DNA of 64,000 nt from Escherichia coli (GCF_003018255.1 NZ_CP027440.1), one strand, 5' to 3'; positions 25,375 through 29,811 are shown, numbered from the stretch's first letter. Made by a program: numbers and translations. The notes: a model not told the origin generated them from the sequence alone.

Positions 25375-25899
25375 GAAACCTCGTGCGGTGATTGTTTTTT
25401 TGATCTACGCAGTGATGCGTGTGTAAGTTTGCAATTCCGTTTGTTGTATTGATTTCTTTACGTTTCATGTAACTGAATTATGATAATGCTACTTTTAACT
25501 ATCACAAGATAATGGTATGTGCCCGGGAATGCACCTGCTTTATGTAGATGCGTTGATTTTTTGGATAAAAAAAAAGCAATTGTAAGTTTTTCATCACATT
25601 TAATAGATACTTTAAGTCTGATAACATACTGTTTTAACTAGCTATATGCCGGATTTGTCTGCCTGCTGAAAACTATGCCTTAGCCACCAGCACAATAATC
25701 TTACAAAAGGTCATATAAGAATAAATAGATGTTAATAATACAATGGGTTTGTAACGCGAGTATTTAAATATAATATTGCGAGCTAAGTGAAAACGTTAAG
25801 TAATTGAAATAATCTTTCATTAAAAGCGTTTCTTATTGATCGAGAATTAAGTTTTCTATTTAATGCAAATAAGTTAAGGATAAACTGGAATGAAATAAA

Positions 25900-27681
25900 G
25901 TGAGCGATATTGTTTACCTGAGAATAATCGGTGAGAAGCAGGGCTATATTTCTTCAGGCTGTGGGACGTATGCGTCGGTTGGTAATTGCTGGCAGGTTGG
26001 CCATGAAGATGAAATTTTTGCCTTTGCACTCACCAACGCCATTACCAGTACTGGTAAAGGCGTTAATCTACAGGGGCTACAATTTTGCAAACTCATTGAT
26101 AAAAGCTCACCGCTACTGTCTAATGCCATCAATCAGAATGAGCGGTTATTTATTGAAATCGATTTGTATCGTATAAATAAAAGCGGGCGCTGGGAACGGT
26201 ATTATTATATTCAGCTAAGAAATGCTTCATTAACTGCTATTCATGTAAACATTTCTGACAATAATCTTCCTACCGAATGTATAACTGTCGATTATGACTA
26301 CATATTATGTAAACATCTAATAGTCAATACGGAATTTGACTGGTTGGCCTTTCCTGCTGGCTATAATAGCTTATTTATTCCGCCTAAAAGCCCACCTGCC
26401 AGTAATCTTAAGCCTGAACCTCTACCAGTTGTTAACCTTCCACTCTCTTCACCAGCGGTTAACCCGGTCTATGCAAAATCCTGTCTGAAGGAGAAGGGAT
26501 GTACAGATGCTGGAACGGCAGAAGAACCCGCTGAAAACTTCGGTCAAGTAGCGATTTTTGCTCAGCCAGTGGTTGATGACTGCTGTGGATACCACCATCC
26601 CGAGGCTAACGATGTCGGGCAACCCGCAGAAGCTCAAACCATGCTACTGTTTCCGGGTAGTGTGTTGGCGGCTCAAATATGGGGAAAATGGTCGCTCAGT
26701 GGCATACTCAGTGCAACCCGCGGCTCTTACATCGGTGCGTTGGCATCTGCTTTGTATATTCCCTCTGCGGGCGAGGGCAGTGCTCGCGTGCCCGGACGTG
26801 ATGAGTTCTGGTATGAGGAAGAACTGCGGCAGAAAGCACTAGCAGGCAGTACCGCCACCACCCGGGTACGTTTTTTCTGGGGAACTGACATTCACGGCAA
26901 GCCTCAGGTGTATGGTGTTCATACGGGTGAAGGTACGCCGTATGAAAACGTCCGCGTGGCGAACATGCAGTGGAACGAGCAGACGCAGCGTTATGAATTT
27001 ACCCCCGCTCACGATGTCGATGGCCCCCTGATTACCTGGACGCCGGAAAATCCGGAACATGGGAATGTTCCGGGCCATACCGGTAACGACAGGCCGCCGC
27101 TGGATCAGCCCACCATTCTGGTGACGCCGATTCCGGACGGCACCGATACCTATACCACGCCGCCATTCCCGGTTCCTGATCCGAAAGAATTCAACGATTA
27201 TATTCTGGTTTTTCCGGCGGGATCCGGTATTAAGCCCATCTATGTTTACCTGAAGGAGGATCTGCGAAAGCTGCCTGGTGTTGTAACAGGGCGCGGCGTC
27301 CCGCTTTCACCAGGAACTCGCTGGCTGGATATGTCGGTATCCAATAACGGCAACGGCGCACCAATCCCGGCGCATATTGCTGATAAATTGCGCGGACGGG
27401 AGTTTAAAACCTTTGATGAGTTTCGCGAGGCGCTGTGGCTGGAGGTGAGTAAAGACTCAGTGTTATTGGCGCAGTTTATAAAAAGTAATCAGAATAACGT
27501 TAGTCAAGGATATTCCCCCTATGTCCCTGAGGAGGGGTATTATTACGGACCAAATGAGATAGTTAAGAAATTCCAGATACATCATGTAGTTGCTATAGAA
27601 CATGGTGGTGGAGTGTATGATATTGATAATTTTAGGATTGTTACGCCCCGACTACATGATGAAATTCACTACAGGAGATAA
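25900..27681 (+). CDS. T6SS Hcp 'extended toxin' effector: N-terminal Hcp domain, Pro-rich/pyocin-S-like middle region, C-terminal colicin E-type HNH DNase
   Basis: 593 aa, GTG start; residues ~1-160 match Hcp family (KLIDKSSPLLSNAI..ERLFIEIDLYRIN..ERYYYIQLRNASLTAIH vs Hcp EIDKSSPYLY..FKWYRI); C-terminus GAPIPAHIADKLRGREFKTFDEFREALWLEVSKD...GYSPY...FQIHHVVAIEHGGGVYDIDNFRIVTPRLHDEIH aligns with colicin E9/E7 and pyocin S DNase ([34 protein letters not shown]...[33 protein letters not shown]). Confidence 0.88.
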   Translation: MSDIVYLRIIGEKQGYISSGCGTYASVGNCWQVGHEDEIFAFALTNAITSTGKGVNLQGLQFCKLIDKSSPLLSNAINQNERLFIEIDLYRINKSGRWERYYYIQLRNASLTAIHVNISDNNLPTECITVDYDYILCKHLIVNTEFDWLAFPAGYNSLFIPPKSPPASNLKPEPLPVVNLPLSSPAVNPVYAKSCLKEKGCTDAGTAEEPAENFGQVAIFAQPVVDDCCGYHHPEANDVGQPAEAQTMLLFPGSVLAAQIWGKWSLSGILSATRGSYIGALASALYIPSAGEGSARVPGRDEFWYEEELRQKALAGSTATTRVRFFWGTDIHGKPQVYGVHTGEGTPYENVRVANMQWNEQTQRYEFTPAHDVDGPLITWTPENPEHGNVPGHTGNDRPPLDQPTILVTPIPDGTDTYTTPPFPVPDPKEFNDYILVFPAGSGIKPIYVYLKEDLRKLPGVVTGRGVPLSPGTRWLDMSVSNNGNGAPIPAHIADKLRGREFKTFDEFREALWLEVSKDSVLLAQFIKSNQNNVSQGYSPYVPEEGYYYGPNEIVKKFQIHHVVAIEHGGGVYDIDNFRIVTPRLHDEIHYRR

Positions 27682-27977
27682 TGTATATGCGTGATTTAAA
27701 AGATAAAATATATTTTTACACAGAAGGTGAATTTCTTGAAATGCTTGAGGAGATAGTAAATGCAACTAGCAAAGATAAATCCCTAAAAGGGAAAAAATTA
27801 GAAAAATATCTCGATACCTTAGTGGATCATTTCATTAAAATTACTGAACATCCTAAAAAGGGAGATCTCATTTTCTATCCTAATTCCCAAGAAGATGGTG
27901 AACCTGAAAACATCCTGAAAATCGTCAAAGAATGGCGGCGTTCACAGGGGCTACCCTTGTTTAAAGACTCTAAATAA
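27681..27977 (+). CDS. Colicin/pyocin DNase immunity protein (Im7/Im9 family), cognate to the Hcp-DNase
   Basis: 98 aa; ATG overlaps toxin stop (TAATG) with AGGAGA RBS; YTEGEFLEML...HFIKITEHPKKGDLIFYP...ILKIVKEWRRSQG matches Im9 (YTEAEFLQLV...HFEEMTEHPSGSDLIYYP...IVNTVKQWRAANG). Confidence 0.9.
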   Translation: MYMRDLKDKIYFYTEGEFLEMLEEIVNATSKDKSLKGKKLEKYLDTLVDHFIKITEHPKKGDLIFYPNSQEDGEPENILKIVKEWRRSQGLPLFKDSK

Positions 27978-28003
27978 AGTAGATAATAAAACTATATATG
28001 AAA

Positions 28004-28031
28004 CATCATCGCGTCTGGCTAATGCGATGAT
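28004..28031 (+). terminator. Hairpin after immunity gene 1 (CATCATCGCG-loop-CGCGATGATG type); copy also at ~28695-28722
   Basis: Inverted repeat catcatcgcg tctggctaa tgcgatgatg seen in sequence, repeated in each cassette. Confidence 0.5.
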
Positions 28032-28126
28032 GTTAATAACATAAAATAATAATATGGTTGCTCTTAAAAAACAGGTAAAAAATACTGAAATCATTTTATC
28101 AATTTCTCGCGTTCACCGATACCCTT

Positions 28127-28372
28127 TGGCTGGAGGTGAGTCAGTATCCGGAGTTGATAGCGCAGTTTTCAAGTGGTAACCAAACACGTATAAAACAAGG
28201 ATTAACCGCAAAAGCACCTCTTGAAGGTTGGCGTTATGGCCCTAAAGAAATCGTTAAAAAATTCCAGATACATCATCGTGTTGCAATTGAATATGGCGGC
28301 AGCGTATACGATATTGATAATTTACGAATTGTTACCCCCAGACTACACGATGAGATTCACTACAGGAGATAA
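28127..28372 (+). CDS. Orphan HNH DNase C-terminal module (lacks Hcp/translocation part; begins at the LWLEVS junction)
   Basis: In-frame LWLEVSQYPELIAQFSSGNQTRIKQGLTAKAPLEGWRYGPKEIVKKFQIHHRVAIEYGGSVYDIDNLRIVTPRLHDEIHYRR; HNH core intact; ORF track 28136..28372 begins at internal GTG; no independent promoter/RBS evident. Confidence 0.75.
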   Translation, partial: WLEVSQYPELIAQFSSGNQTRIKQGLTAKAPLEGWRYGPKEIVKKFQIHHRVAIEYGGSVYDIDNLRIVTPRLHDEIHYRR

Positions 28373-28816: not shown

Positions 28817-29065
28817 TGGCTGGAGGTGAGTCAGTATCCGGAGTTGATAGCGCAGTTTTCAAGTGGTAATCAAACACGTATAAAACAAGGATTAATCGCA
28901 AAAGCACCTCTTGAAGGTTGGCATTATGGCCCTAAAGAAATCGTTAAAAAATTCCACATGTATCATTGTGTTGCGATTGAATATAGTGGCGAAATTTACG
29001 ATATTGATAATTTAAGGAGGGCACACCTCATTTGCATGATGAAATTTATTACAGGAGATAGTTAA
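28817..29065 (+). pseudogene. Degenerate orphan HNH DNase C-terminal module (frameshifted, catalytic His substitutions)
   Basis: ...GPKEIVKKFHMYHCVAIEYSGEIYDIDNL then frame change; HH replaced by YH; a different frame reads HLHDEIYYRR* (final His replaced by Tyr) relative to RLHDEIHYRR in the intact copies. Confidence 0.75.
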
Positions 29066-29356
29066 ATGTATAATTTTAAAGATAAAGTAGAAGATTACAC
29101 AGAGCGGGAATTCATTGAGTTGCTTGGCGAGTTTACAAATCCAACCGGGGATAACGCTCAATTAAAAGGGGAAGAGCTTGACAAATATTGGGATGATCTA
29201 GAAGAACATCTTACCAGAATTACACAACATCCGTTGATGAGCGATCTTATCTACTATCCTGCAAAGAAGGGAGATGATAAGCCTGAAAACATCCTGAAAA
29301 TCGTCAAAGAATGGCGGCGTTCGCAAGGATTGTCTTTGTTCAAAGATTCAGAATGA
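29066..29356 (+). CDS. Colicin/pyocin DNase immunity protein, variant 3 (intact; paired with degenerate orphan module)
   Basis: 96 aa, EDYTEREFIELLGE...HLTRITQHPLMSDLIYYP...ILKIVKEWRRSQGLSLFKDSE. Confidence 0.88.
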   Translation: MYNFKDKVEDYTEREFIELLGEFTNPTGDNAQLKGEELDKYWDDLEEHLTRITQHPLMSDLIYYPAKKGDDKPENILKIVKEWRRSQGLSLFKDSE

Positions 29357-29381
29357 ATTCTAAACAGAATCTGTCACCTGA

Positions 29382-29412
29382 AAATCATCACGTTCTGGTT
29401 AAGTGATGATTT
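29382..29412 (+). terminator. Hairpin after immunity gene 3
   Basis: aaatcatcac-gttctggttaa-gtgatgattt inverted repeat followed by T-rich tract. Confidence 0.55.
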
Positions 29413-29763
29413 TCGCTACGAGAAGGTTACGGTGGCGATTGCAGTGATAATAAGCAATGTAAAAAGAAAACATAGGTAAATACTACCTTTCTCTCCTTCC
29501 CTGAACATTCATTTTACATATTAATTCACATAATTGAATTGTTATGCGTTTTGTTGCTTGGTGAATCGGTTCAGAGGACATATTTTTTCGTTTCAATTCT
29601 GTTAATCTCACCCCTTGATGGGTAAATTTAACATTTGTGCATAGTTACAACTTTGAAACGTTATATATGTCAAGTTGTTAAAATGTGCACAGTTTCATGA
29701 TTTCAATCAAAACCTGTATGGACATAAGGTGAATACTTTGTTACTTTAGCGTCACAGACATGA

Positions 29764-29780
29764 AATTGGTAAGACCAATT
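29764..29780. promoter_or_regulatory. PdhR operator palindrome in the pdhR-aceEF-lpd promoter
   Basis: AATTGGTaagACCAATT perfect inverted repeat just upstream of pdhR start; matches the known PdhR box. Confidence 0.85.
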
Positions 29781-29811
29781 GACTTCGGCAAGTGGCTTAA
29801 GACAGGAACTC

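Follow-up and report, generated by a model that had tools for sequence, protein, structure and literature searches.

PAIusp of the uspI type in the aroP-pdhR interval of an Escherichia coli chromosome: an Hcp-DNase toxin gene followed by an array of toxin-immunity modules

PAIusp is a chromosomal pathogenicity islet of about 4 kb found in uropathogenic and extraintestinal pathogenic Escherichia coli, and was first described in 2000-2001. It is located between aroP and pdhR (PMC7142922). Its toxin gene usp widely serves as a marker for extraintestinal pathogenic E. coli, and the protein is a model 'evolved Hcp' toxin. The usp genes have been classified into the types uspI and uspII and into four subtypes, and OrfU1 was proposed to protect against UspI and OrfU2 against UspII (PMC3685522). 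Usp of strain Z42 was shown in the same study to be a nuclease that requires the H-N-H motif and is neutralised by OrfU1 (PMC3685522). In strain UTI89, Usp (UTI89_C0121) is the Hcp-ET3-4 of Ma et al. 2017, which a review summarises as a fusion of Hcp, pyocin S3 and colicin DNase followed by three immunity-gene copies (PMC6730261). According to the same summary, Hcp-ET3-4 is antibacterial and all immunity copies contribute. Here, a stretch of 64,000 nucleotides of E. coli DNA (NZ_CP027440.1), referred to as the window, was analysed. A first-pass annotation made from the sequence had described its aroP-pdhR interval as an accessory island with an effector gene. This segment is PAIusp, with the prototype arrangement uspI-orfU1-orfU2-orfU3.

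The aroP-pdhR interval extended exactly from 25375 to 29811 and comprised 4,437 bp, compared to 540 bp in K-12. The first-pass annotation had put it at about 4.4 kb against a few hundred bp, in agreement with this measurement. The element was located in the aroP-pdhR intergenic region, as is PAIusp, and usp was followed by three orfU/imu genes, PAIusp having two or three. Primers of strain Z42 (PMC3685522) matched without mismatch at the gene ends in the order usp, orfU1, orfU2, orfU3 (Table 1). The encoded Usp was 93% identical to UTI89 Usp (UTI89_C0121). Based on the Z42 primer matches and the identity to the Hcp-ET3-4 of UTI89, the element was recognised as a rediscovery of a known one. Site, genes and domain architecture were common to the PAIusp of Z42 and UTI89, and nothing essential differed. 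Compared with UTI89, which carries uspII, the last ~90 usp codons differed and the order of the immunity modules was rotated, as in the published difference between the uspI and uspII subtypes. The whole interval was 100% identical to the chromosome of strain DETEC-S792 (NZ_CP116067.1) with an identical gene layout, and the RefSeq (PGAP) gene coordinates of that record equalled the open reading frames (ORFs) of the window wherever they were compared.

PAIusp is already known and well characterised, and the segment raises no question beyond those stated in the literature. The checkable claims of the first-pass description of an accessory effector islet held; its identity as PAIusp and that of the toxin as Usp (Hcp-ET3-4) had been missed. 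The practical value of the analysis is the correct label, which is PAIusp of the uspI type, for a genome in which a type VI secretion system (T6SS) is also encoded. Modest additions are the exact junctions, indicating replacement by flanking homology, the module rotation relative to UTI89, and the observation that in two more genera the same site holds the islet or a decaying form of it. With these additions, the existing picture of the spread of islets lacking mobility genes is refined, and no new question is opened. Taken as a whole, the reading as a PAIusp with an Hcp-fused DNase toxin, delivery by a T6SS, orphan modules and acquisition via flanking homology is considered highly probable.

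Usp combined an N-terminal Hcp/TssD domain with an S-type pyocin domain and a C-terminal DNase domain of the colicin/pyocin HNH type. The Usp of 346 aa that was originally reported corresponded to residues 248-593 of the ORF, beginning with MLLFPGS. Matches in the PDB comprised klebicin G (6e-42), the colicin E9 DNase (3e-33), the pyocins AP41, S8 and S2, colicin E7 and several Hcp proteins. The residues of the HH...N...H...H motif were retained in the DNase domain. DNase activity of this Usp is predicted from the motif and was demonstrated in the Usp of Z42. With an N-terminal Hcp/TssD domain and a C-terminal toxin next to an immunity gene, Usp belongs to the Hcp-ET effectors. Common features were the N-terminal Hcp, the C-terminal pyocin S and colicin DNase domains, three immunity paralogues downstream and a site outside any T6SS cluster. 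Hcp-ET1 is distinct from this protein and combines a plain HNH domain with immunity by ETI1.

Homologous HNH DNases (E 1e-25 to 1e-42) were found in the colicins E2, E7, E8 and E9, the pyocins S1, S2 and AP41 and klebicin G, and the four-helix immunity proteins of colicins and pyocins were homologous to those of the island (E 1e-19 to 1e-23). In contrast to the DNase colicins and pyocins, usp had Hcp as delivery domain, no annotated lysis gene, an exclusively chromosomal location and a published regulation by TyrR and H-NS. A colicin receptor-binding or translocation domain was not detected in Usp by Pfam, and a lysis gene was not annotated in the island. Thus, the receptor-binding, translocation and release functions of released nuclease bacteriocins were lacking, and only the Pyocin_S and DNase domains were held in common. 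The G+C content within usp was mosaic: the Hcp part had 0.39, residues 151-500 had 0.52-0.56 and the last 93 codons had 0.40, which fits a gene assembled from parts of differing origin.

Table 1. Features of the aroP-pdhR interval and its flanking genes, in window coordinates.
Feature	Position	Strand	Description and evidence
aroP	24001..25374	-	aromatic amino acid transporter, left flanking core gene; ORF, RefSeq annotation, 97% identity to K-12
Native aroP upstream DNA	25375..25461	.	96.6% identical to K-12
Left end of island allele	25462..25585	.	diverged colinear copy of aroP upstream DNA; 59% identity to K-12, 73% to the usp-bearing Superficieibacter locus
usp leader	25586..25899	+	island-specific, AT-rich (G+C about 0.29-0.32), no homology to K-12
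usp	25900..27681	+	Usp (Hcp-ET3-4), 593 aa, GTG start; Pfam, NCBIfam and PDB matches, UTI89 identity, Z42 primers
Hcp/TssD domain	25900-26334		aa 1-145; TIGR03344 120.6 bits (curated cutoff 58.9), PF05638 5e-13, PDB Hcp 3e-14
S-type pyocin domain	26824-27249		aa 309-450; PF06958 3e-40
Colicin/pyocin HNH DNase (Col-Pyo_DNase)	27277-27672		aa 460-591; PF21431 6e-43
Z42 H-N-H mutagenesis primers	27562-27675		match
Z42 primer, usp 3' end	27661-27678		match
imu1/orfU1	27687..27977	+	presumed cognate immunity gene, 96 aa (annotated start) or 98 aa (ATG at 27681); PF01320, PDB Im7/Im9/ImAP41, orfU1 primer
Z42 primer, orfU1 end	27954-27974		match
Hairpin after imu1	28002-28034	+	13-bp stem
Orphan DNase 3' fragment 1	28136..28372	+	78 codons, HH...N...H...H intact; 93.6% identical to the UTI89 (uspII) Usp C-terminus
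imu2/orfU2	28375..28668	+	immunity gene, 96% identical to first UTI89 immunity gene; PF01320, primer
Z42 primer, orfU2 end	28641-28665		match
Hairpin after imu2	28684-28716	+	13-bp stem
Orphan DNase 3' fragment 2	28826..29065	+	degraded; HH changed to YH, end frameshifted by 1-nt deletion
imu3/orfU3	29066..29356	+	immunity gene; PF01320, primer
Z42 primer, orfU3 end	29334-29353		match
Hairpin after imu3	29379-29415	+	13-bp stem
Right end of island allele	29490..29621	.	diverged copy of K-12 sequence upstream of the pdhR promoter; 54% identity to K-12
Native pdhR promoter/operator region	29622..29811	+	98.4% identity to K-12, 84% to Superficieibacter
pdhR	29812..30576	+	right flanking core gene; ORF, RefSeq annotation

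The region 27402-29480 was a three-fold tandem repeat with a unit of ~690 bp, each consisting of a DNase tip and an immunity gene. All three immunity genes (96-98 aa) belonged to PF01320 and matched Im7, Im8, Im9 and the pyocin (AP41) immunity proteins with E 1e-19 to 1e-23. The annotated start of imu1 was located 6 nt beyond the usp stop codon. Two orphan fragments, copies of the last ~78 DNase codons, were placed between the immunity genes. The toxin 3' fragments are displaced, each is paired with an immunity gene of its own and their order varies between strains, which characterises the locus as a polymorphic-toxin system. The arrays of orphan C-terminal toxin and immunity genes of Rhs and CdiA likewise consist of a full-length toxin gene followed by displaced 3' fragments with immunity genes, and their modules are also bounded by conserved sequence and arranged in strain-dependent order. 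Unlike in Rhs and CdiA, the carrier was Hcp, the modules were very short (~690 bp) and all were of one DNase/Im family.

All divergence between the Usp proteins of the window and UTI89 was found within the last ~90 residues. Imu1 corresponded to the third immunity gene of UTI89 (96%), and orphan fragment 2 together with Imu3 to the second UTI89 module (96%). Both strains therefore had the same three modules in rotated order, with a different one fused to usp, in agreement with the published subtype classification. Strain E19 had four modules. The homology between usp and the orphan fragments started at TGGCTGGAGGTGAGT (27434-27448), and the 3' ends of the immunity genes were nearly invariant. 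Both of these conserved stretches probably serve as substrates for recombination. Each immunity gene was followed by a hairpin (about -17 kcal/mol; z -4.8, -4.4 and -2.5 for copies 1, 2 and 3). Copy 3 differed from copies 1 and 2 by two compensatory base-pair changes, suggesting that the hairpin structure itself is conserved. The hairpins may serve as terminator, attenuator or mRNA-stabilising element.

Identity at the level of K-12 ended at 25461, with 96.6% before this position, and resumed at 29622, with 98.4% after it. Just inside each junction, where the DNA was still colinear with K-12, it fell abruptly to 54-59%. In total, 4,160 bp of the window stood in for 263 bp of K-12. Additional DNA was present as the first-pass annotation had stated, but it had replaced native sequence and was not a clean insertion. 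Both ends of the island allele were diverged copies of native sequence (Table 1). The left inner flank included the conserved block TAATGGTATG with the -10 hexamer of the aroP promoter P3, and the right inner flank retained conserved stretches, among them GTGAATCGGTTCA. In the same K-12 alignment, unrelated parts scored ~35%. An interpretation of the 263 bp of K-12 as a deletion scar of the island was rejected; only the outer ~125 nt and ~130 nt were alignable, with 54-59% identity. A 17-nt match of the 263 bp to the orphan fragments was at chance level (E = 0.2). The entire 64-kb window was ~96-99% identical to K-12, with about 98% outside the interval. Since the kilobase-scale flanks matched the genome background, any imported tract was confined to the intergenic region.

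Among 5,426 complete E. coli genomes, 1,058 (19.5%) carried usp, as judged by its first 1.5 kb, always as a single copy with 95-100% identity, always on the chromosome and never on a plasmid. The allele of the window was uncommon, with 11 of the 1,058 genomes showing at least 99% identity. At least 80% of the whole interval was found in 1,047 genomes, and K-12-like genomes matched the two flanks only. The absence of usp from K-12 and its presence in 19.5% of the genomes identify the content as accessory and not core, as the first-pass annotation had proposed. Strain A20 was considered as a third allele and rejected, as the site was empty there and the left flank more divergent.

Other genera were searched with six peptide patterns in one genome per species. 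A full usp-imu locus adjoining aroP was detected in Enterobacteriaceae bacterium UBA5654. Superficieibacter sp. 1612_C1 (locus L014, 7001-8459) had a frameshifted usp remnant of residues 1-406 between aroP and pdhR, without the DNase domain and the immunity genes. By sequence comparison, the remnant is assigned to the same islet caught in decay in another genus. Loci of this islet have been described for Salmonella in the literature; Salmonella bongori was not returned by the scan of one genome per species, and the six peptide patterns likely did not match it. Related toxins occupied other sites. Citrobacter sp. On2M (locus L006, 7001-9300) encoded a Usp-like Hcp-pyocin toxin with DNase and two immunity genes just downstream of gltA. 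A gut Enterobacteriaceae isolate (locus L007, 7001-8638) encoded an Hcp-pyocin toxin with a different C-terminal domain downstream of thiBPQ. Mobility genes were not present alongside the toxins at the gltA and thiBPQ sites. A 1.2-kb contig labelled as a Bacillota metagenome-assembled genome (L019) contained Usp-like fragments and a colicin-type immunity gene and is probably misbinned enterobacterial DNA. In DETEC-S792, three separate places matched parts of the island query, and the two outside aroP-pdhR could be further immunity or DNase fragments.

Apart from usp, which PGAP named tssD, no tss, vgrG, clpV or PAAR gene was annotated in the 64 kb. The first-pass annotation had noted this lack of structural genes and concluded that the effector would depend on a T6SS encoded elsewhere. 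Such a system was present in the matching genome of DETEC-S792. A T6SS cluster was located beside tRNA-Asp (aspV), ~118 kb from the island (NZ_CP116067.1, 4,560,140-4,587,427). It comprised tssB, tssC, tssE, tssF, tssG, tagH, tssJ, tssK, icmH/dotU (TssL-family), tssH, vasI, tssA and tssM as well as two hcp genes, vgrG and an Rhs element. In this aspV island (locus L020, 15586-16996 and 38654-47494), a VasL-domain gene and the Rhs element were frameshifted, and the latter was also interrupted by copies of ISEc1 and IS1. A fusion of the same toxin type to another T6SS component was found in Escherichia sp. E1V33. There, the pyocin-DNase module (47% identity) formed the C-terminal half of a VgrG of 1,188 aa within a T6SS cluster, providing independent support for the T6SS link. 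The gene for this VgrG (locus L017, 1-11200) directly followed tssM, tssF, tssG and tssJ and was itself followed by at least five colicin-type immunity genes. For the related Hcp-ET1, T6SS2-dependent delivery is summarised in reviews.

Usp is inferred to be delivered by the T6SS of this strain. In the proposed sequence, Usp would be made as a complex with the first immunity protein Imu1/OrfU1 and would join, or travel with, the Hcp tube of the aspV T6SS. It would then be fired into neighbouring bacteria, where DNA would be degraded unless the neighbour carried the matching immunity gene. The orphan modules would keep the cell immune to sister variants such as uspII and could provide homology through which intra-locus recombination exchanges the toxin tip. 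According to the literature, TyrR activates the expression of usp, and H-NS acts on the AT-rich leader as a repressor. Several points weigh against delivery by the T6SS. A VasL-domain gene and the Rhs gene of the aspV cluster were frameshifted, which makes its activity uncertain. A 2015 review stated that experimental evidence for the secretion of Usp was lacking (PMC4436062). Usp has also been reported as a genotoxin acting on mammalian cells (PMC4436062), so that its biologically relevant target is debated. Usp might accordingly be mainly a released, bacteriocin-like genotoxin directed against mammalian cells and independent of the T6SS, its Hcp domain being a relic or serving another purpose. 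Purified Usp or usp-expressing E. coli lowered the viability of human cells and activated caspases (PMC4436062), and usp has been associated with isolates from urinary-tract infection, prostatitis and bacteraemia in the literature. The pyocin and DNase part was also found with non-Hcp N-termini in Lelliottia, Siccibacter, Enterobacter and Lonsdalea, the matches beginning at about residue 165. However, the N-terminus of Usp scored twice the curated TssD cutoff, and the same toxin module was fused to VgrG in the T6SS cluster of E1V33, another Escherichia species. Neither ORFs nor annotation showed a lysis or release gene in the island. Arrays of immunity genes and orphan modules would be meaningful in bacterial conflict but not for a toxin directed at the host, and antibacterial activity has been reported in the review summary of Ma et al. 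2017 (PMC6730261). A mainly host-directed, T6SS-independent role is therefore regarded as unlikely.

As judged from the junctions, homologous recombination via the conserved flanks at aroP and pdhR is the most likely way in which the islet arrived and is spreading. This route was favoured over site-specific insertion because a target duplication was lacking, native DNA was replaced, the allele carried its own diverged copy of the regulatory region and the same site was occupied in several genera. It is weakened by its basis in one K-12 sequence and two foreign loci instead of a population analysis. The islet could also have been inserted by an element of the site-specific or transposable kind that later lost its integrase or transposase, and Rihtar et al. 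raised aroP-pdhR as a possible 'specific integration site'. Yet, neither an integrase or transposase nor a tRNA was found, att-like direct repeats, terminal inverted repeats and a target duplication were likewise missing, the island replaced 263 bp instead of interrupting them and its ends were diverged homologues of native sequence, which makes this origin highly improbable. The islet might also be ancestral at aroP-pdhR in the enterobacterial lineage and have been deleted in K-12 and most E. coli. The decaying remnant in Superficieibacter proves that loss in place occurs, and what the empty K-12 allele retains at the position of the island is DNA of low conservation only. Against such an ancestry stand the low and mosaic G+C of the islet, its prevalence of 19.5% with usp alleles only 95-100% identical to one another, and related Hcp toxins at unrelated core sites of other genera, after gltA and after thiBPQ. 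In addition, the DNA next to the junctions was ~55-59% identical to K-12 compared with ~98% in the rest of the 64 kb, a difference far exceeding what vertical descent within E. coli would produce. Ancestral presence followed by deletion is thus doubtful. Returning to recombination through the flanks, PAIusp could, tentatively, be an old presence/absence polymorphism. It would pass among Escherichia, Salmonella, Superficieibacter and the uncultured UBA5654 as a flanking-homology cassette with its own diverged aroP P1/P3 control region, the crossovers being fixed at the TyrR strong box and the pdhR promoter. If this is true, the orphan DNase fragment that is still intact would stand ready as a reserve from which recombination inside the locus could switch uspI to uspII or the reverse. 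No mention of the junction structure or of the two additional host genera was found in the published accounts of PAIusp that were consulted.

The TyrR box has the consensus TGTAAA-N6-TTTACA. Two TyrR-box-like sequences, TGTAAGTTTGCAATTCCG (25422-25439) and TGTATTGATTTCTTTACG (25446-25463), were assigned by eye as candidate boxes. The -10 hexamer TGGTAT of the divergent aroP promoter P3 was conserved at 25513-25518. Binding of TyrR in the aroP upstream region has been reported, and P3 was reported to drive usp (PMC7142922). On the usp leader region, binding and repression by H-NS were described, and TyrR was described as an activator of usp (PMC7142922). Silencing of the additional DNA by H-NS, as suggested in the first pass, is thus backed by repression shown experimentally (PMC7142922). 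At the opposite end of the interval, the pdhR promoter/operator had been described as intact, which is borne out by the K-12 identity of the 190 bp upstream of pdhR.

The G+C content of the interval was 0.403 compared to 0.506 for the whole window. It was 0.29-0.32 across 25450-25900 and 36% in the array of genes downstream of usp. The conspicuous AT-richness described in the first pass applied to the interval as a whole and to 25450-25900 in particular, but with 0.52-0.56 in the middle of usp it was patchy. Searches for mobility features were negative throughout, as the first-pass annotation had anticipated. An integrase or transposase was not present in the interval according to the RefSeq annotation of the identical record, and no tRNA or tmRNA was found within 23000-31000. 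Flanking direct or inverted repeats or a target-site duplication were not detected above chance, the matches being of the order of 16 nt at 81% identity. The interval therefore had neither the tRNA target nor the integrase nor the flanking direct repeats of classical tRNA-linked, integrase-bearing islands. Rfam families did not match in the interval. In a consensus scan, promoter-like sites (12 against 12.7 expected) and terminator-like sites (4 against 3.7 expected) showed no excess. The remainder of the 64 kb consisted of ordinary core genes from mraY to yadV, as annotated in RefSeq for NZ_CP116067.1. Among them, yacH (window 37127-38884) comprised 1,758 nt compared to 1,854 nt in K-12, a difference of 96 nt, and the BLAST alignments to K-12 overlapped there.

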